Shown piece by piece: positions 9,505 to 48,538 of a DNA stretch of 48,538 nucleotides (positions are counted from its first letter, which is position 1; every line of letters begins with the position of its first letter). The notes under the pieces were generated by a model. That model saw nothing but the letters and a program-made list of their open reading frames with translations, did no database searches and was not told where the DNA came from. The stretch lies in contig CANQAT010000002.1 of NCBI GenBank assembly GCA_947588925.1, positions 1 through 48,538 on the forward strand. Direction: 5' to 3'. Source of the stretch: an uncultured Bacilli bacterium (GTDB lineage: Bacteria > Bacillota_I > Bacilli_A > RF39 > UBA660). A program made the translations under genes and the position numbers.

Positions 9505-11232
9505 TTAACTTCTTGTTGGGGATATAATTACACGGAAGGAAAGACCATAATCACTATCTCCAGATATACTATTTGAAACATTAAAAATACCTTGGGCTGC
9601 AATCTCAATAAAACTGGAAGCATAACCGCCTCTCACTAACCATGTATGTTCATATTCTTCACCCGGTCCAACACAAAATACTTCATCAGAATACCACCCT
9701 TTTGTTTCCCATAGGGCATGTCCTTTATATGAATTACTCATCATTTTACTATTATAAAGATCATAATACTTAGAATCTGGCAACTCTATTCCATCCGTAT
9801 ATTCAGTTCCATCAACTAAAGGTCCATTAAATCCAGTGTTGTCATGATTATTATCTACGCCAGAATAAAAATTCCCATTAGTATCGCCTACAAATCCCAT
9901 TACATATTCTCCTTTTCCACCATTCATATCATATATTCCATATACATTTCCTGTCGTTGAAGCAGCTTGTCCTCCTATAGTTTCATATGAATACCCATGA
10001 TCAGGGTTGTCAGAGATATCCCATGGAATTCCTCCAGCTCTACCAGTAATGCCCATGCCATTGCTTACTACTTCATTAGATGAACTATCATAATTAGGAT
10101 TACCGTATTTACCATATTTAGATTGCGTTAAATACGCAGCGACTCCCCATTCACTATTTTTAGCGGCATGACTATCACCAAAGTTACTTAAATAACTATT
10201 ATATTGTCTTGATACTGTAAACATTTGGGCTAATGTATAAACATTCCCATTTGTCCCACTTTGAATATTTGGAATGATATAAATACTATCATCGTCAGAA
10301 TCATAATCTAAAATACCCGTCTCAAACTTTCCTACCCATATTCCAGAAAGTTCTTCTTCTCCAAATGTAAATGCTGGAGGAGTATACCAATTACTAGGAT
10401 TATCACTTGTATAAGTAGCTACCCCGTTTTCCTTGATACTACTAGATACAAATTTTATATCTATCGCTTGTGGATTCATGTAACAATCATATTGTTGTGG
10501 TGGATACGTATAACTACTTTCACAAGTGCTTCTCTCACCTTTTGCTTTACTACTTATTGTATATGAATATCTTGGTATCCATACAAACATTGCAATAACA
10601 TCTGAGGTTGTATCATATACAGAACCATATTCATCTAACGTTGGAAGTTTTAGTGTAGTACCTACTTCAGTACTTACTCCCTCTTTTAGTATTACTGCAT
10701 TAGCCCATTCCTGTTTTTCATAATCATACCACTTTTTTTCAGGATCTGCTATTTCCCAATGATCTTTTATATATTTAACTGGTACAAGTGCGCCATTCAT
10801 CAAATCTGGTCTATTTGCTCCACTTGAATCCTTATATGTTAACTTTTCTAATCCCCATTCACATCCTTTTATATCATCAACTCCAACTTCTATTTTAACA
10901 CTTTTACCATTAGAAGATGAAAGTTTTATTTTTAAACTATCTGATATTTTTTTATTGGAATTAGGATCTATTATATCTTCACTAAGTAAACCGTATTCTT
11001 TTAAATCATTTAATGTTATGTATTTGCACTCATTTTTCTCTGGTATTTTACTTAAATTATCTACTACCCATGCTTCCGCTGCTGATTTAATAAGCGTAAC
11101 TTGAGCAGAACTCAAATCCTCTTTTGAATCTTTCAATAGTTTAACAATTGAAACTCCAGTAACAAGAGCAAGTAGTGAAAGTATTACTATTACGGCTATT
11201 AATTCTACTAACGTAAATCCTTTATTTTTCAT
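9505..11232 (-). CDS. prepilin-type N-terminal domain protein with large C-terminal FGE/SUMF1-like module
   Basis: Start taken at ATG 11232 (GGAGGACAGT upstream). N-terminus MKNKG|FTLVELIAVIVILSLLALV has the class III signal with G-1/F+1/E+5. The C-terminal part carries GNVYGIYDMNGGKGEYV, WLVRGGYAS and YGLSFRVI, resembling the NxYGLYDMxGNVWEW / RGGSW / GFR signature of the FGE-sulfatase fold (recognised by eye only). Confidence 0.75.
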   Translation of the reverse strand: MKNKGFTLVELIAVIVILSLLALVTGVSIVKLLKDSKEDLSSAQVTLIKSAAEAWVVDNLSKIPEKNECKYITLNDLKEYGLLSEDIIDPNSNKKISDSLKIKLSSSNGKSVKIEVGVDDIKGCEWGLEKLTYKDSSGANRPDLMNGALVPVKYIKDHWEIADPEKKWYDYEKQEWANAVILKEGVSTEVGTTLKLPTLDEYGSVYDTTSDVIAMFVWIPRYSYTISSKAKGERSTCESSYTYPPQQYDCYMNPQAIDIKFVSSSIKENGVATYTSDNPSNWYTPPAFTFGEEELSGIWVGKFETGILDYDSDDDSIYIIPNIQSGTNGNVYTLAQMFTVSRQYNSYLSNFGDSHAAKNSEWGVAAYLTQSKYGKYGNPNYDSSSNEVVSNGMGITGRAGGIPWDISDNPDHGYSYETIGGQAASTTGNVYGIYDMNGGKGEYVMGFVGDTNGNFYSGVDNNHDNTGFNGPLVDGTEYTDGIELPDSKYYDLYNSKMMSNSYKGHALWETKGWYSDEVFCVGPGEEYEHTWLVRGGYASSFIEIAAQGIFNVSNSISGDSDYGLSFRVIISPTRS

Positions 11233-11253
11233 ACTGTCCTCCATATAATATAA

Positions 11254-13392: not shown

Positions 13393-13421
13393 AAATTAAA
13401 ACTATGATTACTCATAGTTTT
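13393..13421 (-). terminator. candidate intrinsic terminator after SASP gene 1
   Basis: 10-bp stem AAAACTATGA(13398-13407)/TCATAGTTTT(13412-13421) with a 4-nt loop. The minus-strand reading ends in a T-rich tract. Confidence 0.4.
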
Positions 13422-13426
13422 AAAAT

Positions 13427-13621
13427 TTATCTATTAAAATTTTCTACATTGTTATAATACTGTTTGCCAAGTTCTACTAATCTTTTAGTCATATATCCAC
13501 CAACAGTACCATTAAGTCTACTAGTTTGGTCTGCTCCAAGTTTAATACCAAGTTCACTAGCTATTTCATATTTTAAATTTTCTAAGGCTTTTTGTGATCC
13601 TTCAACAACTAACTTATTCAT
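13427..13621 (-). CDS. alpha/beta-type small acid-soluble spore protein
   Basis: 64 aa. [13 protein letters not shown]...TSRLNGTVGGYMTKRLVE is the canonical alpha/beta SASP signature. GAGGTGAG RBS. Confidence 0.9.
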   Translation of the reverse strand: MNKLVVEGSQKALENLKYEIASELGIKLGADQTSRLNGTVGGYMTKRLVELGKQYYNNVENFNR

Positions 13622-13791
13622 AATCTCACCTCATTATTATTATGAGCTATATATTTATAATTACTATTCATATTCTTTCCATTTAGGGAAATTTATACAA
13701 CTCTTTAATATAAGCGATAGAAAATTCTTCTACTAATATTAATCGTTTAAAAGTAAACAATATTAATGTAAGCTTCGATTTTCTTATTTTA

Positions 13792-13816
13792 AACAAAAAG
13801 ATAGCTTTAAGCTATC
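13792..13816 (-). terminator. intrinsic terminator after SASP gene 2
   Basis: Minus strand reads GGATAGCT-taa-AGCTATC followed by TTTTTGTTT. Confidence 0.55.
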
Positions 13817-13823
13817 CATTTTC

Positions 13824-14030
13824 TTACTTAGAATAAGTATTTCCACTTATATGTTGTTCACCCATTTGAACTAATCTTTTAGTGATTTCTCCTCCAACTG
13901 AACCATTAGCTCTTGAAGTAGCATCAGGACCTAAATTAACTCCTAATTCACTAGCTATTTCATATTTCATTTTATCGATAGCTTGTTTAGCACCAGGTAC
14001 AACAAAGTTACTTGTTGAATTGTTTTTCAT
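13824..14030 (-). CDS. alpha/beta-type small acid-soluble spore protein
   Basis: Start moved to ATG 14030 (GGAGGTGAAATT upstream). Contains [13 protein letters not shown]...[17 protein letters not shown]. Confidence 0.9.
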
Positions 14031-14051
14031 AATTTCACCTCCGTACATTTA

Positions 14052-14080
14052 TAATTTGTGTACAAAGGTGAATTTTATAC
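14052..14080 (-). promoter_or_regulatory. candidate forespore sigma-G/F-type promoter of SASP gene 2
   Basis: Minus strand reads GTATA, 17 nt spacer, CAAATTA. This matches the consensus GHATR-17/18-CAtxxTA and lies about 20 nt upstream of the RBS. Confidence 0.4.
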
Positions 14081-14105
14081 AAAATTTAATTGGTAAATTT
14101 TTCTA

Positions 14106-15327: not shown

Positions 15328-16077
15328 TTAACTTACTTTTGATGTAATACTTGGAGTATTTAAGTATCCATCAAAGTAGTAACTCGGAATATTTCCTTCA
15401 ATAATCTTTATTACTACTGGTATATCTGTTTGAATTTTTGTACTAGAAGATACAAATGGCAAAAGTATTTTTACTTCTGCTTCTATTCCAATACTAACAG
15501 TAATTAAAGCATTATTTATTCCGTAAGATTCAACTGAAGTATTAAGTCTACAAAAGATATTCCCAATTAGATTCATTTTTACTGGTATTTTAGGCATTAT
15601 ATTGTTTAATAAAACATTATTTAAAATAATCCCACTAGGTATTTCATATATAATACCTTTCTTTAACTTTTCTTTATCATAAGAAGAAAATATATTACTA
15701 TCTAAATTAAGCTTTTCTATCTTTCCATCTTCTAAATATTTTAAATTTTGCTCTACCATTTTAGAGGCTTCTATTAAAATACTATTTACTTTACTAGAGT
15801 TAATATCTATACTTTTTATATCACCTTTAGAATCTTTTATAGTTGTAAATAAATCATCTATATCTGTTTTATTTGAAACAGAAGATATAACAGTACTATT
15901 TATTATAGATGATACAATCCTTTTTGTTTCTATTTGTGAATAACTAAGTAATTGTGGGACTGCTTTATCATTAAAGACTTTTAAAACATATGAAACTGAA
16001 ATAGCTAATAATATTAAAAGTATTAATATCTTATTTATTATAGATTTCTTTTTACGTTTTTTTAAATGCATTCTCAT
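15328..16077 (-). CDS. yunB: sporulation protein YunB-like
   Basis: Basic N-terminus MRMHLKKRKKK, one TM helix, then a YunB-like soluble domain. The track ORF begins at a TTG (16173) inside hydrophobic read-through, so I prefer ATG 16077 (or 16071). No clear RBS, so the start is uncertain. Confidence 0.6.
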   Translation of the reverse strand: MRMHLKKRKKKSIINKILILLILLAISVSYVLKVFNDKAVPQLLSYSQIETKRIVSSIINSTVISSVSNKTDIDDLFTTIKDSKGDIKSIDINSSKVNSILIEASKMVEQNLKYLEDGKIEKLNLDSNIFSSYDKEKLKKGIIYEIPSGIILNNVLLNNIMPKIPVKMNLIGNIFCRLNTSVESYGINNALITVSIGIEAEVKILLPFVSSSTKIQTDIPVVIKIIEGNIPSYYFDGYLNTPSITSKVS

Positions 16078-16132
16078 ACTAAATAATATGTATAAATTAA
16101 TTATTTTAGGAAAGAATATGAGTGGTGATACT

Positions 16133-16582
16133 ATGATTAATGAAATTATGAGCAGGGATATTATATATGGCAATATAAATGATTCTATTAAGGATATATC
16201 AAAACTTATGAAAGAAAAAAATATAGGTTTTATTCCTATAAAAGATAAGGATAAATTTGTTGGAGTTATAACAGATAGAGATATTTGCCTTGCAGTTGTA
16301 GATATTAAAAGTATTGATGATAAAGTTAAACCATATATTACAAGTAATATTGAGGCAGTAGATATAAGCGCAAATATAGATGAGGCATTAAAAATTATGA
16401 GTAATAAAAAGATTAAAAGATTACTTGTAAAAGAAAAAGATAGTATTGTTGGAATATTATCTTTATCTGATATTTTAGAATTTACAAATAATCCTAATAT
16501 TTTAAGTACATATAAATCAATTTTTTATATAGGTGATAACACATCTAGTCTTGAAAGTGAAATAGATGAATTTTATCTATAA
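16133..16582 (+). CDS. CBS-domain pair protein
   Basis: Two CBS repeats (MSRDIIYG...IGFIPI; IEAVDIS...IKRLLVKE...GILSLSDIL). Start ambiguous among ATGs at 16088, 16118 and 16133; 16133 follows GGTGA and gives a typical MxxxIM N-terminus. Confidence 0.78.
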   Translation: MINEIMSRDIIYGNINDSIKDISKLMKEKNIGFIPIKDKDKFVGVITDRDICLAVVDIKSIDDKVKPYITSNIEAVDISANIDEALKIMSNKKIKRLLVKEKDSIVGILSLSDILEFTNNPNILSTYKSIFYIGDNTSSLESEIDEFYL

Positions 16583-20132: not shown

Positions 20133-21083
20133 TTAAAGTCCATATTCAAATTCCCCTGTACCTTGATTGTAGTAAAACTTTTTTTCTACCTTATCATATA
20201 AACAAGCTATTCCATCTTTATCTAAAGCAGGAATAAAATCAAAGACTATTTTATTATCTTCATTATCATATACTTTTATATAATACAACTTCATTGTTGC
20301 AGGAAGTTGTATTTTTCCACCATCATTATTAGCAAAAATATACATAGATAAATTGCCATTAAAACTTATTAAATCCATTTCCTTTATCAAAGTATTATTA
20401 ACGATTAAAGAATTACTCATTTCAATAACATTTTTTTCATTTAAGTTTAAATTTTCAATAGAGGCACCCCAATGTGCTAAATTACCAATACCATCGTAAT
20501 CAGCTTGAAGCTTATCATAGCCACAACCTGTAAACAAAGTAAAATCATTCCTATTACCGCTTCTCGCTCCGAAGATTCCTTGTTGTACATTAGTTTGCTC
20601 AATCATTTGAAATTCAACAATTACTTTTGTATTTCCGTTTGGAATATATTTAGTATCTATCCACTGTGTTCCTGTACTTTCTAAATATTCAATATCTATA
20701 TAATTATCTCCGTAAAAATAATTTATTTTTTCTCCATCTACCTTACAATCATCTAAAGCAATAGTCATATCTTCATGTAATTGTACAAAATCACATTCTA
20801 CTCTTTCTCCATCATATTCTATATCTAATGAAAAATCACTATCATTTAAAGTTAATGTATTACCACTAGTTTTATAACCTCCCATTGGTACTTCTTCTGT
20901 TAAACTTTTTCTTGCTATTGCAAGTTCTATAGACCTACCATATAAATCTATACTTCTTTTCTTACTTTCAGTTCTTGCGTCATTTATTATATTTAATATT
21001 GTTGGTACTGCTATTAATGCAATAATAGCTAATATTACTATTACGGCTAATAATTCTATTAATGTAAATCCTTTGTTCCTCAC
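20133..21083 (-). CDS. prepilin-type N-terminal domain protein with uncharacterised beta-rich C-terminal module
   Basis: GTG start after AAGGAGG. N-terminus MRNKG|FTLIELLAVIVILAIIALIAV. The C-terminal module carries YLESTGTQWIDTKY ... IFGAR ... FYYNQGTGEFEYG. I recognise this motif pair as recurrent in hypothetical proteins but cannot name a family. Confidence 0.75.
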   Translation of the reverse strand: MRNKGFTLIELLAVIVILAIIALIAVPTILNIINDARTESKKRSIDLYGRSIELAIARKSLTEEVPMGGYKTSGNTLTLNDSDFSLDIEYDGERVECDFVQLHEDMTIALDDCKVDGEKINYFYGDNYIDIEYLESTGTQWIDTKYIPNGNTKVIVEFQMIEQTNVQQGIFGARSGNRNDFTLFTGCGYDKLQADYDGIGNLAHWGASIENLNLNEKNVIEMSNSLIVNNTLIKEMDLISFNGNLSMYIFANNDGGKIQLPATMKLYYIKVYDNEDNKIVFDFIPALDKDGIACLYDKVEKKFYYNQGTGEFEYGL

Positions 21084-23748: not shown

Positions 23749-23867
23749 TCAATGTTTTAATTCTAAGGTCCCATTTTGTGACCTTAGAAATTTATATCTA
23801 ACATTATTTGTTTTCCTCTTATTTCATATATTAATCCTTCTATTTTTACTTCTTCTATTTCGTTCAC
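23749..23867 (-). pseudogene. decayed ORF6N-like gene fragment
   Basis: The GTG-started 27-codon ORF VNEIEEVKIEGLIYEIRGKQIMLDINF* has the IYxIRGxxVMLD hallmark of ORF6N N-termini as I recall it. A frameshifted continuation reads FLRSQNGTLELKH*, resembling the family's LRxQxxT segment. About 40 intervening codons are missing. Confidence 0.35.
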
Positions 23868-24129
23868 TTTATCACCTTCCTTATTTTCTTCAATAATTAG
23901 TTTATTAATATAATCTCAAGCATTGATACACCTATTTTATAAATACTTTAAATGCTGTTGTTCTAATTCTAAGGTTCCAAAATGAAACCTTAGAAGTCTA
24001 GTTTCACATACATATTCTTTGAAGTTCCAAAATGGAACTTCAAGTTTTAAAGTCTTTTTCTAATTATTAAAACTCACTACCTCCTATATATATCATACGA
24101 CAAAACTTTTCAATTTCCTTTTTTTTATC

Positions 24130-24177: not shown

Positions 24178-26016
24178 TTAGTTTACGTATGTATAATTTT
24201 GTGTTTGTGTTCCATTTAGTAAACTTGTATCTAATGTCCATTTATCTTTAGTTACTTTAACAACTTTTAAATTTTTACAACCAGGAAACATGCCATAGTC
24301 AGTAGCGCTGTGCGTATCAAAGCTTGTTAAATCGAGTTCTTCTAAGCTACTACAGTTTTGAAACATACAACGTAACCACGTTACCTTAGAAGTATCAAAA
24401 TTACTTAAATTTACACTTATTAAAGAATTACAACCGTCAAACATACCACCCATATTGGTAACGCTACTTGTATTGAAATTACTTAAGTCTAATTCTATTA
24501 AACTACTACATCCTGCAAACATTCTAATCATATCTGTCACTTTTTCAAACGTAGAATTTTCTCCAAATTTTATACTTTTTAATTTTGTACAATTTTGAAA
24601 AATATTAGAGCCACTATTTACATTTTTTGTATTAAAGTTACTTAAATCCAAATACTCTAAACTACTACATCCACTAAACATTAATACCATATTTATTACT
24701 TGAACTGTATTAAAACTATTCAATTTTAATTTTTTTAAGCTACTACATCCGGAAAACATACTATTCATGTACAGTACTTGACTTGTATCAAAATATTCAA
24801 GACCATTTATTTCTTCTAGGTTACTACATCCGCTAAACATAGAATCCATGCTTGTTACTCTGGATGTATTAAAATTTTTACCAAAAGTTACTGTTGATAA
24901 CCCTGTGCAACTTTCAAACATCCATATCATACTACCAACTTTACTTGTGTTAAAACTGGTTAAATTTAAATCTGCTAAACAAAAACATTTTTCAAACATG
25001 GCACGCATTGTTGTCACTTGCGAGGTATCAAAATTTTCTAATCCTTTTATATTTAATAAATTATTACAAAATCTAAACATATATGACATATCCAATACGC
25101 GTGATGTGTTGAAACTACTTAAGTTAATTATCTTTAAAGTATTGCACCCATCAAACATATAATTCATAATTGTTACTTGTGAGGTATCTAAACCAAACAA
25201 ATTAATGTTTTTTAATGATTTACATGTGCTAAACATTGCTCCCATGTTTATTGATTTACTTGTGTCCATTAAATTTAATTCTATTTCTTCTGCTCCTTGG
25301 AAATTTTGAAACATAGAATTAATATATGCTGGACAACTTATATATCCCTCACTATATACATATATTGCTTGATTAACTTCATCATAATATCCTTTTATGC
25401 TTCCATCAGACTTTGATGATAAATCTGTATATTTAAACTCTTCCAATTCTTCTTTTGTTATTCCTTCTGGTAGTACACTGTCTTGTAAAAAGATTATTTT
25501 CTTTACTTTTGTATCTACTGTATTATAATCAGGAGTACTACCGTCATCTTTTGTATCTCTAACTAATTCTTTTACCTTTTTATTAAAGTCTTGGCCACTA
25601 ACTAAAGTACTTTCATTTAAGTTCTTAAGTATCTCTATATCTTCATCTGCTACTCTTGCATAATAATCATCTATTAAGCCTTTTAGTACTCTTGTTACTT
25701 TACTATTCTCTATTAATAAAAGTCCACTTTTAAGTCCTCTTCCATCATAGTTTATAAATATCTCTTTATCTCCTAGTACTATCTTTTTTCCATCATCTGT
25801 TATTGTATATAAGCCGTCACTTACATTATTAAATACTTCTTCATTTATTAAGGATGTATTTACTGCTCTTATATATTCACTTGTACTTATCTTTAATGAT
25901 TTTATCTTTGCCTCTGTTATTATATTTAGTACTATTGGTACTGCTATTATTGCTATAAATGATAATATTAATATTACTGCTAGTAACTCTACTAATGTAA
26001 ATCCTTCGTTTTTCAT
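24178..26016 (-). CDS. prepilin-type N-terminal domain protein with stalk region and about 14 DUF285/BspA-type leucine-rich repeats
   Basis: Start at ATG 26016 (AGGAG 9 nt upstream). N-terminus MKNEG|FTLVELLAVILILSFIAIIAV. It is followed by about 14 repeats of about 25 aa with the pattern LxLxxF(N/D)TSxVxxMxxMFxGCxxL. Confidence 0.82.
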   Translation of the reverse strand: MKNEGFTLVELLAVILILSFIAIIAVPIVLNIITEAKIKSLKISTSEYIRAVNTSLINEEVFNNVSDGLYTITDDGKKIVLGDKEIFINYDGRGLKSGLLLIENSKVTRVLKGLIDDYYARVADEDIEILKNLNESTLVSGQDFNKKVKELVRDTKDDGSTPDYNTVDTKVKKIIFLQDSVLPEGITKEELEEFKYTDLSSKSDGSIKGYYDEVNQAIYVYSEGYISCPAYINSMFQNFQGAEEIELNLMDTSKSINMGAMFSTCKSLKNINLFGLDTSQVTIMNYMFDGCNTLKIINLSSFNTSRVLDMSYMFRFCNNLLNIKGLENFDTSQVTTMRAMFEKCFCLADLNLTSFNTSKVGSMIWMFESCTGLSTVTFGKNFNTSRVTSMDSMFSGCSNLEEINGLEYFDTSQVLYMNSMFSGCSSLKKLKLNSFNTVQVINMVLMFSGCSSLEYLDLSNFNTKNVNSGSNIFQNCTKLKSIKFGENSTFEKVTDMIRMFAGCSSLIELDLSNFNTSSVTNMGGMFDGCNSLISVNLSNFDTSKVTWLRCMFQNCSSLEELDLTSFDTHSATDYGMFPGCKNLKVVKVTKDKWTLDTSLLNGTQTQNYTYVN

Positions 26017-31147: not shown

Positions 31148-31168
31148 ATTATCACATCCATCGTATTA

Positions 31169-31197: not shown

Positions 31198-31318
31198 TAC
31201 ATTTTGTTGCTTTTTTTCTTATTTTTTTATTTTTTTGCGTTTTTTTGCAACATTTTGTATACAAAAAAATGGCAGTATTTTCCATAAATTCTGTGTGAAA
31301 AATTCTACCTATTTAATA

Positions 31319-32044: not shown

Positions 32045-32078
32045 ACTACTCTCCTTTTAACAATATTTAAATCCAAAA

Positions 32079-33368: not shown

Positions 33369-33400
33369 AGAATTTCACCTTATGGAATTATTTTAACATA

Positions 33401-33457
33401 TTTCGTACAAAAAAGACATATTTTTAACATGATTTTCGTACATTTTGTACGAAAATC
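33401..33457. promoter_or_regulatory. perfect 11-bp-arm inverted repeat plus a third half-site between the Fic and ATPase genes
   Basis: GATTTTCGTAC-atttt-GTACGAAAATC at 33431-33457, with an additional TTTCGTAC at 33401-33408. No T-run follows on the minus strand. Confidence 0.35.
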
Positions 33458-33472
33458 AAAAAAAGAAGATAT

Positions 33473-34222
33473 TTATTTATCTTCTAACTTAAAATTTAAC
33501 ATTTCTTTTGCAACACTTTCAAACCTGTCTTGTTCGTGCTTCAAAGTGTCTATTAAAAACATTTTGTCTTCTTTATAATTCTTTAAACCTCTCATGTAAA
33601 AAGGTTTATCTTCATCCAGTATAATAAAAGGCATAATATTATGTTTTAAACATTCTTTAAACATAATCATTCTACCAACACGACCATTTCCATCACTAAA
33701 AGGATGTATGCATTCAAACTTATAATGAAAATCTACAATATCTTCTATAGTAACACTCTTTAAATTATTATACTTAACAATCAGTTTATCTAAATCTTTT
33801 TCAACGTTACTGGGTGATGATGTATTTACGACATTTATAAGTCCAATATTGTTGGGTACTACCTTAAATCCACCTACATTATATCTTGGATTATCTTCAT
33901 CGTTAGTATTTCTTTTTAAAATTTTATTCATATTTATCATTATTTCTTTTGAAATGGGTTCATCAATAATATCAAGGCAATAATCAAATAATCTAAAATG
34001 GTTTTTCATTTCAATTAAATCATCTAATTTAATTGAATTATCACTTTTTGGAATAAATGAATTTGTTTCAAATATTTCTTCTGTTTCATCTTCTGTTAGT
34101 TTATTGCCTTCTATTTTATTTGAATTATAAGCAAAATTAACTTGAGAATAATGGTATAAATTGCCTTTAAACTTAGTCTTTTTTTGTTCTATAAGTTCTT
34201 CTTTTATTCTTGATACATCCAT
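33473..34222 (-). CDS. Fic-family protein (class II, with N-terminal inhibitory motif)
   Basis: Fic motif HPFSDGNGRVGR. The N-terminal SNKIEG matches the (S/T)xxxE(G/N) autoinhibitory helix motif. Confidence 0.88.
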   Translation of the reverse strand: MDVSRIKEELIEQKKTKFKGNLYHYSQVNFAYNSNKIEGNKLTEDETEEIFETNSFIPKSDNSIKLDDLIEMKNHFRLFDYCLDIIDEPISKEIMINMNKILKRNTNDEDNPRYNVGGFKVVPNNIGLINVVNTSSPSNVEKDLDKLIVKYNNLKSVTIEDIVDFHYKFECIHPFSDGNGRVGRMIMFKECLKHNIMPFIILDEDKPFYMRGLKNYKEDKMFLIDTLKHEQDRFESVAKEMLNFKLEDK

Positions 34223-34262
34223 AGAATCACCACATCAATTATATCACAATAATATTTAAAAC

Positions 34263-34291
34263 AAAATAGTTAATAAACCATTAACTATTTT
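34263..34291 (-). terminator. AT-rich 11-bp hairpin after the Ham1-like gene (weak terminator candidate)
   Basis: AAAATAGTTAA(34263-34273)/TTAACTATTTT(34281-34291). The minus strand continues GTTTTAAAT. Confidence 0.3.
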
Positions 34292-34393
34292 AATATATTA
34301 TCATATTTTGACTTTTCTTCTTAAATTTGCAAATTATTTTAACTTTTTGCTTCAATAATATATCTTAAACAATTTCTTCGATTACTATTAATC

Positions 34394-34948
34394 TTACTTA
34401 TTTTTCAAAAAATCTGCAAGTTCATGATAGGCATTTGTGTTCCAAACCATGCATCTTTCTTCATCAGGATAATTTCCCATTGTTTTATCATATCCATCAG
34501 GAATAAAAATGAAATCCCAACTCCAACCATATTTACCAGATTTTTCTTTTGCTATTTTTCCTTTTGTAATTGATTTAAATACAATAGGATCTTTTCCATA
34601 TTCACAGTATGCAAACGCTTCAATAAAGCAAGCATTTCTATTCTCTATTCCATCAAGAAGTTTTAATAATCCTTCTTCTCCAAGTTTTTCATCAACATAA
34701 TGTGTATAAGGACCGGGAAACCCACCAAGTGCTTCCACATATAAACCAGTATCATTTTTTAAAACTGTGCATTTTAATTTCTCACTAGCTTCTTTTGCTG
34801 AATGCATTGCTACTTCTTCAACCGTATCAGCTTGAATTTCTGTTGTTTCCATCTTAATATTATCAACTTCAATACCAAGAGGTTCTAATATTTGCTTTGC
34901 ACTCATTATTTTAGACCAGTTACCAGTAACATAAGTTATTTTTTTCAT
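34394..34948 (-). CDS. Ham1/RdgB-like non-canonical purine NTP pyrophosphatase
   Basis: VTGNWSKI at the N-terminus and NDTGLYVEALGGFPGPYTHY, an ITPase-family pattern. Confidence 0.72.
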   Translation of the reverse strand: MKKITYVTGNWSKIMSAKQILEPLGIEVDNIKMETTEIQADTVEEVAMHSAKEASEKLKCTVLKNDTGLYVEALGGFPGPYTHYVDEKLGEEGLLKLLDGIENRNACFIEAFAYCEYGKDPIVFKSITKGKIAKEKSGKYGWSWDFIFIPDGYDKTMGNYPDEERCMVWNTNAYHELADFLKNK

Positions 34949-34967
34949 TTTTTATCACTCCTCACAA

Positions 34968-37004
34968 TTAATCAATCTTTTTCCTTAATATTCTCATAGT
35001 ATTTAATATTGTAAGTAAAGTAACACCAACATCTGCAAATACTGCTTGCCACATACTTGCAACACCCACTACACTAAGTATTAATACAAGTACTTTAACA
35101 CCTATTGCAAATATTAAGTTTTCTTTAATTATTCTACTTACATATTTAGATATATTAATACTTGTAACAATTTTACTTAACTCATCAGTCATAATAACTA
35201 CATCTGATGCTTCTATTGCAGATTCTTGTCCTATACCTCCCATTGATATACCAATATGAGCTAAGGCTAAAGTCGGTGCGTCATTTACTCCATCACCGAC
35301 AAAAGCAACTACGTCTTTATCTTTTACATAACTTTCTAATAATTCGTATTTTTCATTTGGAAGTAATTCATAGTTTATTTTATCTAACTTTAAAGTATTA
35401 CCTACACTTAATGCATTATTTTTACTATCCCCTGTAAACATTTCACAAATTATATTTTTATTTTTTAAAGATTTTATAGTACTAATTGTGCCATCTTTTA
35501 ACTTATCAGTTACATTTAAACTAGCAACTACCTTACTATTAATACTTATATAAATATAGGCATTACCGTTTTCTACATTATTAAATGAATCACTACCTAT
35601 TTTTATTTTATCGCTACCTATTTCAAAGGAAATACCTTTGCCCTTTTCTTCTTTAAAGTTTTTAACATCGCTGTTATCTACATCTATTTTTAATAGTTCT
35701 ATTAAGCTTTTAGCAATAGGATGGTTAGATAAAGACTCTCCTTTTACTATTAACTCTTTTATATAATTTTCTTCTAAATTTTTATCATACATTTCTATTT
35801 TTATATTTTCAAATTTACCTGTTGTAAGCGTACCTGTTTTATCGAACACTATTTTTTTAATATTTCTTAAATTATCTAAGTAGTTACTACCTTTAACAAG
35901 TATTCCTTCTTTTGATGATTTACCAATACCTGCAAAATAACTTAAAGGAACTGAAATAGCAATCGCACAAGGGCAAGATATTACTAAAAATACAAGTGAC
36001 TTATAAAACCATACATTAAACGCATCTTTAGTAAATATAACTCCATATAAAAGTACTAATATAGCAAGTATAAATACAAGTGGTGTGTATATACGCGCAG
36101 CCTTTGATACAAATGTCTCAGTCTTAGCCTTATTATCAGTTGCATTTTCAACAAGTTCAAGTATTTTATTTACTGTACTATCTTCATAACTAGTAGTAAC
36201 TTTAACCTCGATTAATCCATCTACATTAATCATACCAGATAGTATTTTATCGCTTTCTTTAAACTCTTTTAAAACACTTTCTCCAGTTAGGGCACTAGTA
36301 TTCATTTTAGCAGAACCTTTTATTACTATACCATCTAGTGGGACTTTCTCTCCTGTTTTAACAACTATAACATCATCTATATTAACACTCTTAGGGTCTA
36401 CTTCTTTTATATTTTTTCCAACTTTTAAATTAGCATATATAGCTTTTATATTCATTAGATTTGAAATAGACTTCCTAGAGTTATTTAAAGCAACACTCTC
36501 AAGTATCTTACCTATTTCATATAAAGTTATAACCATCAAGCCTTCACTTTGTTTATTTATTATATAAGCACCTACACAAGATATAGTAATTAAGAAATTC
36601 TCATTGATTGTTTTTTCCTTAACAAGTATTTTTATAGCTCTTATAAATGTCTTAGATAAAAGTATTATATAAGATATTATAAGTAGTATATTTTTTAATA
36701 TATCACCTTTAACTATTAAGCCTATTATACCTATTAAAACACCTATAAATAGTCTTAATATATCGTATATAACTTTAGTCTCTTTAACCTCAGTTTCGTA
36801 TATCTCAACACCATCTTCAGTTTTCTTAACTATTTTATTTACGTATTTTAATACGTCTTTAGTCATATCTGTTTCTATTGTTACTTTAAGGTTAGAAAAA
36901 TTTACACTAGCACTTTTTATATTCTTATCTTTATTTAGTGTATCTTCTATTCTTTTTGCGCAGTTAGCGCACTCTAAATTACTTATATTAAATTTATATT
37001 TCAT
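34968..37004 (-). CDS. heavy-metal translocating P1B-type ATPase (CadA/ZntA-like)
   Basis: HMA domain with CANC, TGES, membrane CPC (SCPCAI), DKTGTLT, SNHP, GDGVNDAP. The track start (37016) is a GTG; I prefer ATG 37004 (MKYKF). Confidence 0.9.
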   Translation of the reverse strand: MKYKFNISNLECANCAKRIEDTLNKDKNIKSASVNFSNLKVTIETDMTKDVLKYVNKIVKKTEDGVEIYETEVKETKVIYDILRLFIGVLIGIIGLIVKGDILKNILLIISYIILLSKTFIRAIKILVKEKTINENFLITISCVGAYIINKQSEGLMVITLYEIGKILESVALNNSRKSISNLMNIKAIYANLKVGKNIKEVDPKSVNIDDVIVVKTGEKVPLDGIVIKGSAKMNTSALTGESVLKEFKESDKILSGMINVDGLIEVKVTTSYEDSTVNKILELVENATDNKAKTETFVSKAARIYTPLVFILAILVLLYGVIFTKDAFNVWFYKSLVFLVISCPCAIAISVPLSYFAGIGKSSKEGILVKGSNYLDNLRNIKKIVFDKTGTLTTGKFENIKIEMYDKNLEENYIKELIVKGESLSNHPIAKSLIELLKIDVDNSDVKNFKEEKGKGISFEIGSDKIKIGSDSFNNVENGNAYIYISINSKVVASLNVTDKLKDGTISTIKSLKNKNIICEMFTGDSKNNALSVGNTLKLDKINYELLPNEKYELLESYVKDKDVVAFVGDGVNDAPTLALAHIGISMGGIGQESAIEASDVVIMTDELSKIVTSINISKYVSRIIKENLIFAIGVKVLVLILSVVGVASMWQAVFADVGVTLLTILNTMRILRKKID

Positions 37005-37287
37005 CGATGTGTTCACACCCCAATCTAAATATTTTTTCTACATGTTCATCAGATAAGAAGTAATGTGCTTCTTTACCGCATTTGCAGCACCTAACAAGGT
37101 GAGATGATCTAAGTATTCTAAGTTGATGTGATACTGCGGACTGTGTCATATTAATCTTTTCTGCTATATCACTCACGCACATTCCACCATCAAGCAGGAC
37201 ATTTATAATTTTAATTCTAGTAGAATCTCCAAACATTTTAAAGAGTTCAGATAAGTCTATTGTTTTATCATCATCTAATAATTTCAT
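36994..37287 (-). CDS. ArsR/SmtB-family metalloregulator
   Basis: LFKMFGDSTRIKIINVLLDGGMCVSDIAEKINMTQSAVSHQLRIL is the canonical ArsR wHTH. It overlaps the ATPase gene. Confidence 0.88.
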   Translation of the reverse strand: MKLLDDDKTIDLSELFKMFGDSTRIKIINVLLDGGMCVSDIAEKINMTQSAVSHQLRILRSSHLVRCCKCGKEAHYFLSDEHVEKIFRLGCEHIDEI

Positions 37288-41570: not shown

Positions 41571-41921
41571 TTAATCCTTAGGTTGAAAAATTAATGATAG
41601 TACAAATGAGAATACTATAGCTGCAACTATTCCAGATGAAGTTAAATCAAACATACCCATGAATAGTCCCATAACTCCAAAGTTGTTTACTGTATCCATA
41701 GCCCCGTGTATAAGCAAATGTCCAAATGATGTAATTGGAACAAGAGCTCCTCCACCTGCCCAAAGTACAAACTTATCATAGACATTAAATACATCTAGGA
41801 ATGCTCCTACTATTACAAATATAGTAGTTATATGACCGGGTGTTAATTTTGTATTATCGAGTATTATTTGTCCTATTAAACATATAAGACCACAGAATAA
41901 AAACGCATTAAAGTATATCAT
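41571..41921 (-). CDS. spoVAE: stage V sporulation protein AE (SpoVAEB-type)
   Basis: 116-aa membrane protein (LICLIGQIILDNTKLTPGHIT), third gene after the spoVAC and spoVAD homologues. Confidence 0.85.
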   Translation of the reverse strand: MIYFNAFLFCGLICLIGQIILDNTKLTPGHITTIFVIVGAFLDVFNVYDKFVLWAGGGALVPITSFGHLLIHGAMDTVNNFGVMGLFMGMFDLTSSGIVAAIVFSFVLSLIFQPKD

Positions 41922-42906
41922 CTATTGCCTCCAAACTTACTGCATGACTAATACTTGGAATAGATAAGTGTTGATTACACATCGTAGTATTCATTAAGGC
42001 ACCTGTTGCGACTAATAATACTTTTTTTAATTTTCCTTTTTTCATTCTATCAAATACATACGAATACGTAACAAGTGGTAGACATGCAGGTCCACTACCT
42101 CCACTATATACAGGTTGCTTATCTAAATCAAATATCATGCATGCAGAATCATCATAGTTTTTTAAATTAATATCATATTCCTTTTTTATATATTCTTTAA
42201 GTATTGCTTTACCTACTAATCCTAGATCACCAGTAAGTATAAGGTCATAGTAATCAAGTGTTCTATTGGTATCTTTTAAATGATCGCTTATAACTTTAGC
42301 AGCAGATGGAGCCATTACAGCTCCCATATTAAATACATCTGTCACACCCATATCTATTACAGTACCAAGGGTCGCAGACTCTACTCTTATTTTAGATTTT
42401 TCACTTGATAAATAACTAGAGGCACACCCTGTTGTTGTAAATGTTGTATATTCTTTCTTAGGTCCTCCATACTCAACCGGATTTCTAAATTGTTTTTCTG
42501 CTCCATTGTTGTGTGATGAAGCTGTTACTATTGCATTTTTTATTTGTTTAGCTTCTATCATATTGCTTGCAAGTAGTATACTTAAAGTACTTATTGAACA
42601 AGCACTATATATGCCTATTAAAGGTATGCCTATTTTAGCTGATGCATAATTAGTCGCAACCATTTGATTTAATAAGTCCCCACCTATATGTACATCTACT
42701 TCATTACTCTTTTTATTTAACTTTTTTAAAAGTAAGTCTACGCTATCATTTATTGCTCTTACCTCTGCTTGTTCCCAAGTTTTCTCACCGAAGTAAAAAT
42801 CATCGTAATTTTTATCAAATAGTTTAGATAGTGGGCCCATAGCTTCATATGGTCCAACTACGCTAGAGGTATCATTTATGTATACATTCTTATATTTAAA
42901 TGTCAT
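41908..42906 (-). CDS. spoVAD: stage V sporulation protein AD
   Basis: 332 aa, thiolase-like. Begins TFKYKNVYINDTSSVVGPYE and is flanked by spoVAC and spoVAE. Confidence 0.9.
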   Translation of the reverse strand: MTFKYKNVYINDTSSVVGPYEAMGPLSKLFDKNYDDFYFGEKTWEQAEVRAINDSVDLLLKKLNKKSNEVDVHIGGDLLNQMVATNYASAKIGIPLIGIYSACSISTLSILLASNMIEAKQIKNAIVTASSHNNGAEKQFRNPVEYGGPKKEYTTFTTTGCASSYLSSEKSKIRVESATLGTVIDMGVTDVFNMGAVMAPSAAKVISDHLKDTNRTLDYYDLILTGDLGLVGKAILKEYIKKEYDINLKNYDDSACMIFDLDKQPVYSGGSGPACLPLVTYSYVFDRMKKGKLKKVLLVATGALMNTTMCNQHLSIPSISHAVSLEAIDDIL

Positions 42907-42907
42907 A

Positions 42908-43348
42908 TTAACCTCCCATCACAAATAGTCTTATAAGTCCAAATATATAAGCACTTACAACGCCAAATATAATTACTGAACCTGCAAGTTTAAACATATT
43001 TGCGCCTATTCCAGTTACAAGACCTTCTTTTCTATATTCAAGGGCTGCGCTCTGGCAGGCGTGTGCGAAACCAGTAATTGGAACGATAAGTCCACATCGT
43101 GCGAAATTTACCCATTTATCAAAAAATCCAAGACAGGTTAAAAAGCAACCTACAAATACGAGTGTTATTATCATGAAAACACTTGCGTCTTTACTAGATA
43201 AGTTAAAGTAAAATGAGTATGCGTCTACTAAGAAATTACCAAGTACACCCATAAATCCTCCAATTAAAAATGCAATAATTGCATTTCTTAACCTTGATTC
43301 TTTTGGGGTTAGTTTATCTACTATTTTTTTATATTCCTTTTTTTCCAT
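42908..43348 (-). CDS. spoVAC: stage V sporulation protein AC
   Basis: Start at ATG 43348 (GGGAGG RBS). Contains LTPKESRLRNAIIAFLIGGFMGVLGN, the typical SpoVAC N-terminus. Confidence 0.88.
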   Translation of the reverse strand: MEKKEYKKIVDKLTPKESRLRNAIIAFLIGGFMGVLGNFLVDAYSFYFNLSSKDASVFMIITLVFVGCFLTCLGFFDKWVNFARCGLIVPITGFAHACQSAALEYRKEGLVTGIGANMFKLAGSVIIFGVVSAYIFGLIRLFVMGG

Positions 43349-43366
43349 AAAAAATCCTCCCATTCC

Positions 43367-43572: not shown

Positions 43573-44646
43573 TTAGCTAAGTCGGAAAGCTGGAGCTACG
43601 CTATGGGTAAAATTAGCATACGTGGAGCTAAAATTGCCGGCACCACCCACGCGCCAGAAATGGCTAATCTCTTTAGAATAAGCCGAGCGAAGCCACCAGT
43701 AGTCTGCACTACCATCGTATTTTTTTATAGCGCTGGAATAATTATAAGTAATTATCTCTTGTTCATAATAATCTAACTGGCGTGTGTTTTCCCAATCTGT
43801 GTATTTATCTATTAAATCTGAGGCTTCATTCCCCCATACTTCACGTGGCGACAATAAATATAATTTATCTTCTGTTACAAAGTTTTGTTCACCTACAGTT
43901 GATCCATGTCCTGATATTACTCTTGTGTCTGCTATAGCATTTTGTAATTCTTCTGGTAATGCATTAAAGACTGTTCCACTACCATCTTCACTAGCAGTAA
44001 CATTTAGATATTTCCTCATCGCACTATCTCTCCATCCGCCTACATTTGTAGCAGTTGAATTCATTTCTTGTTCAGATATGACATCTACAAACTCTACTAC
44101 AAATCCGCAAGCTGTTTGTGAAAAATTAGAGGCTTTACATTCTGATGGCGTTGAAGTATTAGCAAGTCTTACTGTAAAGTTTTTATTGAACTCACCACCT
44201 AAATATATTGTTTTCTCATCTCCTACTCTGTACTTTTCACCTTTTCCTGCTTTTACATTTCTTATTATGGTTTCCCATGAATCAGTTGCAAACGATATTG
44301 GACAACTATTCTCTTGATATTCATATGAGTATTTATATGACTCATATTTTATATTTACTGAACCTGGTAAAGTTTCTCTTGTTTTAGGATCTATTACATC
44401 ATTTGATTCGATATATCCCATACTTATTAAATCAGATATATCTACACATTCTTCATTCTTCTTTATTCCTTCTTGTAGATGATATATTTCTGCTGCTGCC
44501 TCTATCTGCTTTCTTTGTACATTTGATAATGATTTTTTAGAATCATTAAGTATTGAGTTAACAGAAAGTATTGTAATTGTTAATAATACACCTAATATTA
44601 TTATTACTGCCAATAACTCCATAAGTGTAAAACCTTTATTTCTCAT
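43573..44646 (-). CDS. prepilin-type N-terminal domain protein with DUF6273-like C-terminal module
   Basis: GGGAGG RBS. N-terminus MRNKG|FTLMELLAVIIILGVLL. The C-terminal part has GGWRDSAMRKYLN...KLYLLSPREVWG...YWWLRSAY...VAPAFRL, a pattern I recognise as DUF6273-like. Confidence 0.8.
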   Translation of the reverse strand: MRNKGFTLMELLAVIIILGVLLTITILSVNSILNDSKKSLSNVQRKQIEAAAEIYHLQEGIKKNEECVDISDLISMGYIESNDVIDPKTRETLPGSVNIKYESYKYSYEYQENSCPISFATDSWETIIRNVKAGKGEKYRVGDEKTIYLGGEFNKNFTVRLANTSTPSECKASNFSQTACGFVVEFVDVISEQEMNSTATNVGGWRDSAMRKYLNVTASEDGSGTVFNALPEELQNAIADTRVISGHGSTVGEQNFVTEDKLYLLSPREVWGNEASDLIDKYTDWENTRQLDYYEQEIITYNYSSAIKKYDGSADYWWLRSAYSKEISHFWRVGGAGNFSSTYANFTHSVAPAFRLS

Positions 44647-44819: not shown

Positions 44820-44895
44820 TGGTGGACCGTTAGGGATTCGAACCCTAGACCCACTGATTAAGAGTCAGTTGCTCTACCGACTGAGCTAACGGTCC
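44820..44895 (-). tRNA. tRNA-Lys (anticodon CTT), CCA encoded
   Basis: 76-nt cloverleaf folded by hand: acceptor GGACCGT/ACGGTCC, D arm GCTC-AGTCGGTA-GAGC, anticodon arm ACTGA-CTCTTAA-TCAGT, variable GGGTC, T arm TAGGG-TTCGAAT-CCCTA, then A-CCA. Confidence 0.93.
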
Positions 44896-46482: not shown

Positions 46483-46510
46483 ATAATCACCAATTATAGT
46501 TTGTACGCAT

Positions 46511-46907: not shown

Positions 46908-46963
46908 TTTATCACCCATTTAATTATACTATAAAATGTTTTAAAAAGATAGATTTTAGATAT

Positions 46964-48538
46964 TTATACGTATGTGAACTCTCCACTAAAACCAGAGGTA
47001 CTTTTTAATTCATCCCATTTGCTTCCTTTTACTTTAACTACTTTTAAGTTTGTACAATTATAAAACATGCTTGTCATATCCGTTACATTTGATGTATCAA
47101 ACATGCTTAAATCTAGTTCTGTTAGACCACTACATCCATTAAACATATTAAGCATATTTTCTACTTGTGAAGTATTAAAATTACTTAAATCTAGACTTGT
47201 TAAGCTACTACAGTTAAAAAATACATCAGACATATTTTTTACACTACTTGTATTAAAATTTTTACCAAATATTATTTTTTTTAAGTTAGTACATCTATTA
47301 AACATTTCTCTCATATTTGTTATTTTTGAGGTATTAAAGCTTCTTAAATCTAATTCATCTATACTACTACAACTGTTAAACATTCTTTCAAAATTTTCTA
47401 CTTCACTTAAATTTAAATATTCTCCAAATTTTATACTTTTCAAATTGCTACAATAAGCAAACATCTGATATACAGATTTTAAATCCCTTGTATTAAAACC
47501 ACTTAAATCTATTTTTTCTAAATTCTTACAATTATAAAACATACTTGACATCGTATCAACATTTAAAGCATCAAATTTTTCACTAAATTTAATTTCTATA
47601 ATGTTTATACATCCACTAAACATACTTGACATATTTATTACATTAGATACATTAAAATTGCTTAAATCAAGTGTTTCCAAATTACTACAATTTATAAACA
47701 TGTTTGACATATCTGTTACTTGTGATGTATTTAATAAAGTTATATCTAAGTCTTTCAAATTTTCACAATAAAAAAACATATCAGACATATTTAATACACT
47801 TGATGTATCAATATTTTCGCTAAATATTATTTTTTTTAAATTTGTACATCTATTAAACATTTCTCTCATATTTGTTACACGACCTGTATCAAAACTTCTT
47901 AAATCTAATTCTATTAAATTTATACACCTATTAAACATTCCGCTCATATTTACTACATTACTTGTATCAAGTCCATTAAAATTTATTTCTTTTACTGACT
48001 GAAAATTATAAAAAATACTATCAATAGTTGAAGGACAATTTATATATCCATCACTATATACATATATCGCACCTGTTTTATCATCATAATATCCTTTTAT
48101 ACTTCCATCACTTTTTGATGATAAATCTGTATATTCCAGTTCTTCTAATTCTTCTTTAGTTAAACTTTCAGGAAGTACACTATCTTGTAAAAAGATTATT
48201 GTCTTTACTTTCGTATCTATTGTATTCCCAATATCTCCTACTAAGGTTTTTATTTTTGAATTAAATGTTGACCCATCTACTAGTGTACTCTCATTTAAAT
48301 TCTTAAGTATTTCTATATCTTCATCTGTTACTCTTGCATAATAATCATCTATTAAGCCTTTTAGTACTCTTGTTACTTTACTATCTTCTATTAGAAGTAA
48401 TCCACTCTTTAGTCCTCTTCCATCATAGTTTATAAATATCTCTTTATCTCCTAGTACTATCTTTTTACCATTATCAGTAATAGTATATAATCCATCTTTT
48501 ACATTATTAAATACTTCTTCATTTATTAAAGATGTATT
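46964..48538 (-). CDS. DUF285/BspA-type LRR surface protein, paralogue of 24178-26016; 5' end lies beyond the window
   Basis: The track lists only 46964-47947 (first Met). The same frame is open for all 197 codons up to 48538 and translates to NTSLINEEVFNNVKDGLYTITDNGKKIVLGDKEIFINYDGRGLKSG..., colinear with residues about 57 onward of the 24178-26016 product. About 13 LRR units. Confidence 0.82.
   Translation of the reverse strand, partial: NTSLINEEVFNNVKDGLYTITDNGKKIVLGDKEIFINYDGRGLKSGLLLIEDSKVTRVLKGLIDDYYARVTDEDIEILKNLNESTLVDGSTFNSKIKTLVGDIGNTIDTKVKTIIFLQDSVLPESLTKEELEELEYTDLSSKSDGSIKGYYDDKTGAIYVYSDGYINCPSTIDSIFYNFQSVKEINFNGLDTSNVVNMSGMFNRCINLIELDLRSFDTGRVTNMREMFNRCTNLKKIIFSENIDTSSVLNMSDMFFYCENLKDLDITLLNTSQVTDMSNMFINCSNLETLDLSNFNVSNVINMSSMFSGCINIIEIKFSEKFDALNVDTMSSMFYNCKNLEKIDLSGFNTRDLKSVYQMFAYCSNLKSIKFGEYLNLSEVENFERMFNSCSSIDELDLRSFNTSKITNMREMFNRCTNLKKIIFGKNFNTSSVKNMSDVFFNCSSLTSLDLSNFNTSQVENMLNMFNGCSGLTELDLSMFDTSNVTDMTSMFYNCTNLKVVKVKGSKWDELKSTSGFSGEFTYV

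Follow-up and report, generated by a model that had tools for sequence, protein, structure and literature searches.

Modular pilins were defined from PilB of Streptococcus sanguinis by Raynaud et al. (2021; PMC8179133), who reported more than 1,200 such proteins in 264 architectures. Dataset S1 of that study includes combinations of IPR012902 with DUF285 (IPR005046), FGE-sulfatase (IPR005532) and BspA LRR (IPR026906) domains, and pilin–lectin architectures are likewise credited to it. A further protein of S. sanguinis, PilC, has a glycan-binding concanavalin-A-like lectin module and has been placed by modelling at the tip of the pilus, together with PilA and PilB (PMC9934059). The modular pilins studied so far are few, and all of them come from pil loci of cultivated bacteria. 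In this study, we analyzed a stretch of 48,538 nucleotides (referred to as the window) of contig CANQAT010000002.1 from an uncultured Bacilli bacterium of the RF39 lineage (GenBank assembly GCA_947588925.1), and found five genes, here named pil1 to pil5, that have the same design as the vWA modular pilin PilB and the proteins of the Raynaud catalogue, i.e., a carrier pilin (the head) with a grafted effector module (the cargo). We conclude with moderate confidence that these genes encode modular type IV pilins that would be processed by PilD and would serve as adhesins and binding proteins. Together they make up 14.7% of the window, and their features are as follows (the arrow marks the predicted cleavage site):

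9505–11232, minus strand: pil1, 575-aa modular prepilin (N_methyl 27.9 bits, TIGR02532 27.1 bits)
10828–11232, minus strand: pil1 head (residues 1 to ~135), with leader MKNKG↓F at 11218–11232
9508–10827, minus strand: pil1 cargo (residues ~136–575), FGE/C-type-lectin-like fold
20133–21083, minus strand: pil2, 316-aa modular prepilin, GTG start (N_methyl 32.5 bits)
20709–21083, minus strand: pil2 head (residues 1–125)
20136–20708, minus strand: pil2 cargo (residues 126–316), concanavalin-A-like lectin-type beta-sandwich
24178–26016, minus strand: pil3, 612-aa modular prepilin (N_methyl 22.7 bits)
~25612–26016, minus strand: pil3 head, followed by a ~100-aa linker and then ~10 PARCEL/DUF285 repeats of 26 aa
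24412–25281, minus strand: 78-nt DNA repeats of pil3 (direct-repeat family D1)
43573–44646, minus strand: pil4, 357-aa modular prepilin (N_methyl 26.2 bits)
~44302–44646, minus strand: pil4 head
43579–44085, minus strand: pil4 cargo (residues 188–356), DUF6273 at 5.3e-19
46964–48538, minus strand: pil5, 5'-truncated paralogue of pil3; 524 aa lie within the window, and the frame is open as far as its edge
48081–48538, minus strand: rest of the pil5 head, plus linker
47036–47983, minus strand: ~10 PARCEL repeats of pil5

First, we found the signature of a prepilin at the start of all four complete open reading frames (ORFs). Each begins with MKNKG↓FTLVELIAVIVIL or a variant of it (consensus M(K/R)N(K/E)G↓FTL(V/I/M)EL(L/I)AVI), that is, with a basic leader, Gly-1, Phe+1, Glu+5 and a hydrophobic stretch. 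A six-frame regular-expression scan of the window for G[F]T[L][VIM]E at an N-terminus returned exactly these four complete ORFs, the sole further match being a chance one of 11 residues. At the DNA level, a degenerate 36-nt leader pattern had three sites in the window versus 0.00 expected from 100 shuffles, and the fourth leader was one base off this pattern. All four complete proteins scored above the cut-offs of both Pfam N_methyl (PF07963; 22.7–32.5 bits, cut-off 21.2) and TIGR02532 (19.9–33.6 bits, cut-off 16.3). The four prepilin-leader ORFs that a first-pass annotation of the window had reported were thereby confirmed by the motif scan and by both models. A GGAGG-type ribosome-binding site was located 6–10 nt 5' of each start, and because its spacing fits, the starts at 11232 and 26016 given in that annotation were favored over those of longer ORFs. 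The heads of the window proteins were 32–45% identical over local alignments, and their cargos were mutually unrelated. The fifth gene had been described as a truncated paralogue; it is indeed both truncated and a paralogue, but of pil3 only (81% amino acid identity in the head and linker, pil3 residues 52–230, and 54% overall; 86–87% DNA identity, repeat families D4/D6). Its leader, which would lie outside the window, is presumed to be present.

Second, structure models showed that the pilin part extends beyond the leader. The AF2 model of pil1 (70-sequence alignment, pLDDT 84.9) had a helix at residues 8–58 and a sheet with strands at 68–116, followed by a separate domain, and that of pil2 (61-sequence alignment, pLDDT 92.2) had a helix at 8–60, five strands at 68–115, a sixth strand at 118–120 and then a sandwich domain. 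Since a helix of about 50 residues packed on an antiparallel sheet, as in the pilin fold, was seen in both models, pil1 and pil2 carry a whole pilin head rather than a mere leader and membrane helix. Comparison of family profiles with solved pilins agreed with this: the best match was PilE1 of S. sanguinis (8pfb; profile positions 6–87, E 7.6e-9), and the matches reached past the hydrophobic segment. In the 70 aligned pil1 homologues, Glu+5 was invariant and Gly-1 and Phe+1 were at least 90% conserved. This was taken from an alignment collected by protein search (A3); the invariance of Glu+5 in a second alignment (A4) is no evidence, as the DNA pattern used to collect it required GAR at that codon. 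At E ≤ 0.001, the homologues of pil1 and of pil2 each number more than 6,000 (more than 6,272 for pil1).

These results bear on the possibility that the proteins are plain signal-anchor proteins whose N-termini resemble prepilins by descent or chance and are not processed. The absence of a peptidase gene from the window would fit such a reading, as would the degenerate N-termini without Glu+5 of some cargo homologues, such as P0054. However, curated prepilin models were passed, a structured pilin head follows the helix, and Gly-1, Phe+1 and Glu+5 are conserved across thousands of homologues, which speaks against a plain anchor, since it would not need these residues. In addition, genes for A24 peptidases occur throughout the lineage and in one relative (locus L078) adjoin genes of this kind. 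We therefore regard plain anchoring as hardly credible.

Third, the cargos are of different types. For pil3, Pfam gave DUF285 (1.4e-62) and LRR_5 (1.4e-18), and NCBIfam gave TIGR02167 PARCEL (5.1e-74, nine stretches); the corresponding values for pil5 were 1.5e-73 for DUF285 and 1.1e-72 for TIGR02167 (eight stretches). The tandem repeats of about 26 residues that characterize PARCEL/DUF285/BspA-type LRR proteins (TIGR02167/PF03382/PF13306) are therefore present in both. The domain type named in the first-pass annotation was supported by Pfam and NCBIfam, but its count of about 14 repeats should be about ten repeats of 78 nt per gene. Downstream of pil3, a 513-nt non-coding gap extends to the start of mraY and contains two copies (23753–23794 and 23959–24000, with 79% identity to each other) of an element of 42 nt that includes a hairpin (TAAGGTCCC...GACCTTAG). 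The DUF6273-like cargo previously suggested for pil4 was upheld by both Pfam and NCBIfam. Upstream, pil4 is preceded at a distance of 177 nt by a tRNA gene (44823–44895, minus strand; Rfam 74.9 bits), beyond which comes a Rieske/FAD oxidoreductase gene. As tRNA genes are common integration points, pil4 may occupy an insertion slot.

The cargos of pil1 and pil2 have no Pfam match. Foldseek searches with the pil1 cargo returned TaqVP (5vf4, E 6e-7) as the top match, followed by TvpA (2y3c), PvdO, FGE and PorK. The earlier description of this module as FGE/SUMF1-like thus holds at the level of the fold, but it has no support from Pfam: PF03781 did not match pil1 at E ≤ 0.01 and was carried by only one of the 120 listed pil1 homologues. 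In FGE, the catalytic cysteine pair is placed after the RGG motif, and we take the segment RGGYASSFIEIAAQGIFNVSNSISGDSDYGLSFRV of pil1 to be the equivalent region; no cysteine is present in this segment. Because both the PF03781 match and the cysteines of the FGE catalytic site are missing, the two marks of an FGE/SUMF1 enzyme, the modelled pil1 cargo is read as a putative binding scaffold and not as an enzyme. The likeness to TaqVP and TvpA, variable proteins of diversity-generating retroelements (DGRs), consists in their being the best structural matches of the pil1 cargo; the family consensus of pil1 is least conserved between RGG and SFRV near the C-terminus, which corresponds to the variable region of the DGR proteins. 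In contrast to pil1, the DGR proteins are not pilins, and DGR targets are defined by a nearby template repeat and a reverse transcriptase. We considered pil1 as a DGR target because of this fold and rejected it, as no template repeat was found in the window: the last 400 nt of pil1 gave only chance matches of 12–18 nt against it (blastn-short). No reverse transcriptase was noticed among the window ORFs read by eye, although no search was aimed at one.

The pil2 cargo (about 190 aa, starting with EYLESTGTQ.IDT and ending with LYDKVEKKFYYNQGTG.F) was similar in Foldseek to pentraxin, the Bacteroides carbohydrate-binding protein BACOVA_03559, CBM40 and LamG. What had been listed as an unnamed beta-rich module is indeed a beta fold and can now be assigned as a concanavalin-A-like/pentraxin/CBM40-type sandwich. 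It also matched proteins of gut siphoviruses (BFVD A0A8S5P150; E 4.9e-19, 30% identity, rmsd 1.9 Å), and a pil2-type cargo was found in P0202, a protein with a Sipho_Gp37 tail domain, so that one binding module appears to be used by both phage tails and pilins. In P0156, tandem copies of this cargo stand behind a non-pilin N-terminus. The closest described counterpart is PilC of S. sanguinis (PMC9934059), which, like pil2, combines a class III signal and a small pilin moiety with a sandwich of the concanavalin-A-like lectin superfamily at the C-terminus; both organisms are monoderm Bacillota. However, no sequence similarity was detected between the two proteins, PilC has an extra Ig-like module that pil2 lacks, and S. 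sanguinis pilC is encoded in a pil locus with ATPase, platform and peptidase, whereas pil2 is a single gene flanked by ftsW and a TPM/LemA pair. PilC has been demonstrated to bind glycans and to be located at the tip (PMC9934059), and by analogy the same might apply to pil2.

Comparison with relatives showed that the cargos are portable. Proteins P0133 and P0117 have heads 78–81% identical to that of pil2, joined to cargo 46% identical to that of pil1, and the switch lies directly after a conserved CKVDG..Y.YG junction. The contig of P0133 (L201; sample ERZ27249413, NODE_3851, coverage 3.19x) comes from the same sample as the contigs of the window organism and has the same depth, so P0133 may be a further paralogue in the same genome. 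On this contig P0133 is followed by P0131 (178 aa), which has a pil2 head and only the first ~45 residues of a pil2-type cargo, and looks like a truncated cassette or pseudogene as judged from its sequence. The pil1 cargo was also found behind degenerate or Flg_new-containing N-termini (P0054, P0115). The cargos hence also exist without a pilin head, and the window genes combine, as other modular pilins do, a pilin module with an extra C-terminal domain not specific to type IV pili.

To assess how common such proteins are, we searched 1.84 billion representatives exhaustively with the 125-residue pil2 head (phmmer) and found 1,106 at E ≤ 1e-10. All of the best 150 of these 1,106 relatives matched at their N-terminus, nearly all of them over almost the whole head; 120 (80%) were longer than 220 aa and were counted as carrying cargo, and only 18 were of classical pilin size. 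A scan for the leader pattern with one genome per species gave at least 109 loci, a sample biased by the pattern used. Nearly all of the loci listed were from metagenome-assembled genomes (MAGs) of gut origin (rabbit, Hadza and ruminant samples) that carry the labels uncultured Bacilli, Tenericutes, Mollicutes or Erysipelotrichaceae, and the pattern had no match in viral contigs. The closest among the matches listed was JAZTXB01 (74–76% DNA identity), in which gene order is conserved and the slots behind prfB and spoVA are likewise occupied by leader-bearing genes. BLASTP similarity of these two proteins to pil1 and pil4 was confined to the head, and both had weak DUF6273-like matches (E 0.004–0.009). 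Of the 107 complete leader-bearing ORFs among the matches listed, 69 (64%) had at least 300 aa; pilins of classical size (110–200 aa) with the same leader also occur in the lineage. Many of the 78 leader-bearing ORFs of at least 200 aa among these matches had no Pfam domain, and the domains found in the others included:

DUF285: 13 of the 78 leader-bearing ORFs
LRR_5: 9 of the 78
DUF6273: 3 of the 78
Dockerin: 2 of the 78
PT-HINT: 2 of the 78
Laminin_G_3: 2 of the 78
Alkaline phosphatase: 1 of the 78

The last of these is a fusion of a prepilin head to alkaline phosphatase (PF00245, E 1.5e-51) in a roe-deer MAG (JAFTRC01; L037:5509–7029, plus strand), directly followed by a 264-aa prepilin with a dockerin-type calcium-binding motif (L037:7129–7920, plus strand). 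The pilin carriers of JAFTRC01 are accordingly predicted to bear enzyme and cohesin-binding cargo. Two leader-bearing proteins of alignment A4 (loci L008–L116) had pretoxin-HINT/Hint domains (PF07591, best E 1.3e-17), which suggests putative polymorphic-toxin cargo behind a prepilin signal.

How much of this is new can be judged against the published catalogue. Both the concept and all but one of the four cargo types have been described before. The first-pass annotation had considered the modules different from, and much larger than, those of known bimodular pilins, and neither point could be maintained: the DUF285, FGE and BspA-LRR architectures are in Dataset S1, the pil2 cargo shares the concanavalin-A-like lectin superfamily with the S. 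sanguinis PilC module (PMC9934059), and lengths of 316–612 aa are within the range of PilB (50.5 kDa) and PilC (52.8 kDa). On the other hand, DUF6273, the pil4 cargo, is missing from Dataset S1, and the catalogue (PMC8179133) is silent on expansion at the level of a lineage, dispersal among housekeeping genes and near-identical heads with different cargo. The following points go beyond what has been published: cargo-bearing members dominate the pil2-head family; the genes are dispersed among core genes; the cargo of relatives includes alkaline phosphatase, dockerins and pretoxin-HINT; as far as sequence comparison indicates, cargo has been exchanged between near-identical heads; and pilC-pilD forms an orphan arrangement. 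Genes such as pil1 and pil2 would be invisible to a catalogue of this type because their cargos have no Pfam match. Domain-based censuses of modular pilins therefore undercount pil1- and pil2-type cargos, for which there is no Pfam model.

The window itself has about 27% G+C, and nearly every gene is on the minus strand. Reading of the translations by eye placed the pil genes among priA, the pyruvate-phosphate dikinase gene, ftsEX, prfB, thiI, ftsW, mraY, two penicillin-binding protein (PBP) genes, ftsL, rsmH and mraZ. Contigs identical to those of the window's organism occur in rabbit-gut assemblies ERZ27249407/413 and also in ERZ27059666/787, and the Pfam annotation of the identical ENA contigs backs some of these names. 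The earlier view that the genes are dispersed singly among housekeeping genes was correct, with none of the five in a pil locus. A promoter scan of this AT-rich window was uninformative (119 sites versus 137 expected); as weak evidence, promoter-like sites were seen for pil2 (21143–21114, with a terminator-like hairpin at 20115–20100) and pil4 (44703–44675). It was also correct that the 48.5 kb contain no pilus or competence machinery: with PilB/C/D/M/N/O, PilC and PilD of the lineage and Tad proteins as tblastn queries, the best match was a Walker-A match in priA.

In relatives, the machinery differs from that of known pil loci. The two true Clostridium loci in our scan had a classical pilB-pilC-pilA-pilD-pilMNO operon, whereas the Bacilli lineage has a T2SSF platform and an A24 peptidase with an N-terminal domain (A24_N_bact plus Peptidase_A24) as a two-gene pilC-pilD unit, conserved in every lineage context examined (L117, L119, L120, L202–L210, L078, L048 and L057). 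The platform is always directly upstream of the peptidase and is usually preceded by lepA and a conserved 78–84-aa ORF on the opposite strand. It has 520–655 aa, with a membrane-rich N-terminal extension of 100–250 residues that is absent from Clostridium PilC (401 aa), and its family has 3,726 members at E ≤ 1e-10. In L078, the platform (643 aa) and peptidase (254 aa) are directly followed by a 573-aa pilin-DUF6273 protein and a 546-aa pil1-type pilin. In other contexts pilC-pilD is found between lepA and ileS or other housekeeping genes, with lepA or typA adjoining; in L119 it is beside murG-murB-ftsQAZ-comEA-comEC and a DUF6273 pilin, and a 139-aa pilin is encoded upstream of pilC. In a rabbit MAG (CANRBS01), some 8 kb upstream of pilC-pilD, a gene for a prepilin of 162 aa is adjoined by a fragment with a Cas12f1-like TNB domain (L204:61–384 and 600–1088).

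The comEA-comEC neighborhood raises the question of whether the window proteins could be accessory subunits of a competence (Com-type) DNA-uptake pilus in a reduced-genome gut bacterium. Besides L119, this is suggested by L083, in which two small pilins are beside comEA/comEC-like and holA-like genes (named by length and order only), and by the pil4 head, which shows weak ComGC/GspG-like similarity as far as residue ~83, far under the cut-offs. However, the window proteins reached only 16–34 bits with the ComGC/GD/GE/GF equivalog models (cut-offs 49–80) and 23–36 bits with GspG (cut-off 88.85), and these matches were restricted to the N-terminal helix region. Moreover, comGA was not encountered, the platform (a long T2SSF protein of two domains) differs from ComGB by its N-terminal membrane extension, and DNA uptake offers no obvious use for adhesive or enzymatic cargo. 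A competence function thus seems distinctly improbable.

Several observations weigh against incorporation into a filament. None of the five genes is encoded in a type IV pilus locus, a location that forms part of the definition of modular pilins. In none of the contexts examined did a PilB/ComGA-type ATPase lie within 10 kb of pilC-pilD, and none was found beside small-pilin loci or in the 1.22 Mb of lineage DNA sampled. The only T2SSE ATPase found there belongs to a separate Tad/Flp locus of relatives (L121–L145, L100) that encodes a Flp pilin of its own (G↓QALVEY), two TadE-like proteins, TadZ, TadA, TadB and TadC and is followed by yebC. We considered the Tad-like ATPase of L100, which is beside three small pilins, as the missing motor and rejected it, as this Tad locus is self-contained, conserved and usually without adjoining GFTLIE pilins. 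The pilC and pilD of the window organism itself were not located; the platform matches P0243, P0241 and P0297 were rejected as its own pilC because all of them come from other MAGs. The cargo of relatives includes the enzyme and toxin types mentioned above (alkaline phosphatase, pretoxin-HINT and dockerin). Finally, gene density is high for tip subunits: there are five genes in 48.5 kb here, and the 338 kb of lineage DNA fetched for other reasons, a less-biased sample, contained about six true leader ORFs, or roughly 18 per Mb. Independently of this, no TadV peptidase was visible in the relatives' Tad/Flp locus, for which reason the PilD-type peptidase might serve both the pilin and the Tad systems.

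The main rival explanation is surface display that depends on PilD and does not involve a filament. In this case the class III signal together with PilC and PilD would form a general export or anchoring route, and the processed proteins, bearing adhesins, enzymes or toxins, would stay anchored in the membrane by alpha-1N or form short stubs. The conserved pilC-pilD pair without an adjoining assembly ATPase agrees with such a route, as does the absence of a PilB-type ATPase from the DNA sampled. So do the predominance of large proteins in both surveys (64% and 80%), the alkaline phosphatase, dockerin and PT-HINT cargo, and the number and dispersal of the genes. A precedent exists in Archaea, where the sugar-binding proteins of the Sulfolobus bindosome (PMC3047682), like other substrate-binding proteins with class III signals, are large functional proteins that have a prepilin-type signal without being classical filament subunits; these belong to another domain of life and have no sequence relationship to the pil genes. 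The bindosome reportedly relies on a Bas assembly system of its own, an ATPase included. On the other hand, the DNA sampled covers each genome only in small part and with bias, so that an ATPase could be encoded elsewhere, and a T2SSF platform normally works with an ATPase. Furthermore, the strict Glu+5 and the complete pilin head fit the needs of polymerization, not of anchoring, and the 110–200-aa pilins of the lineage could build a filament shaft. On balance, display without a filament is possible but somewhat doubtful.

A more far-reaching form of this idea, which we consider unlikely, is that the prepilin signal and an orphan pilC-pilD with no dedicated PilB-type ATPase constitute the main general-purpose surface route of the lineage. 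Each genome would then encode dozens of interchangeable cargos (lectins, LRR adhesins, dockerins, alkaline phosphatase and pretoxin-HINT toxins), also an unlikely state of affairs in our opinion. Equally speculative is the corollary that the system would be a bacterial counterpart of the archaeal bindosome, with cassettes swapped between pilin heads and with phage tail proteins.

We still favor modular type IV pilins. Subunits of a filament and a general display route had both been proposed in the first-pass annotation, and our preference for the former is moderate. According to this model, the carrier would consist of the basic leader (Gly-1, Phe+1, Glu+5) and an alpha-1 helix of about 53 residues on a small sheet, joined through a short junction to an unrelated ligand-binding cargo. 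The precursor would be inserted in the membrane, where a PilD-type prepilin peptidase/methylase would cut after Gly and methylate Phe1; the head would then allow uptake by type IV filament machinery encoded elsewhere, and the cargo would be held away from the cell, where it would bind gut glycans or proteins; the protein would most likely be a tip subunit or one of low abundance. PilC and PilD are present in the lineage, and comparison with relatives makes it very likely that the window organism has its own peptidase and platform. That the machinery is encoded elsewhere in the genome is plausible because relatives keep the pilC-pilD pair. The repertoire would owe its diversity to gene duplication (pil3/pil5) and to recombination at the head–cargo junction.

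A literature search for type IV pili in RF39/RFN20-type lineages returned nothing specific. Our results point to a large, dispersed and recombining repertoire of modular pilins in abundant uncultured gut Bacilli. If displayed on filaments, these proteins are probably the main surface proteins with which these organisms adhere and scavenge nutrients, and would provide a natural system for studying how type IV filaments accommodate bulky cargo. If no assembly ATPase exists, they would represent a filament-independent use of the prepilin pathway in bacteria.

Two other features of the window were observed. An apparent island (29703–37287) interrupts the dcw cluster (mraZ-rsmH-ftsL-PBP ... PBP-mraY-ftsW); with names based on translations only, it contains AbiEii/AbiEi-like toxin-antitoxin genes, a HAM1-like gene and genes for an AAA ATPase, a Fic protein, a P-type metal ATPase and an ArsR regulator. 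Both pil2 and pil3 are likewise inserted between dcw genes. In addition, sporulation genes were found at 13400–14100, 15328–16173 and 41571–43363; the relatives of this organism carry the labels Bacilli, Tenericutes or Mollicutes. The sporulation genes comprise two SASP genes and yunB, assigned by Pfam on the identical ENA contigs L003 and L005, and spoVAC/D/E-like genes recognized by eye. The spoVA genes, yunB and the two SASP genes indicate that the window organism is, by predicted gene content, a spore-former.

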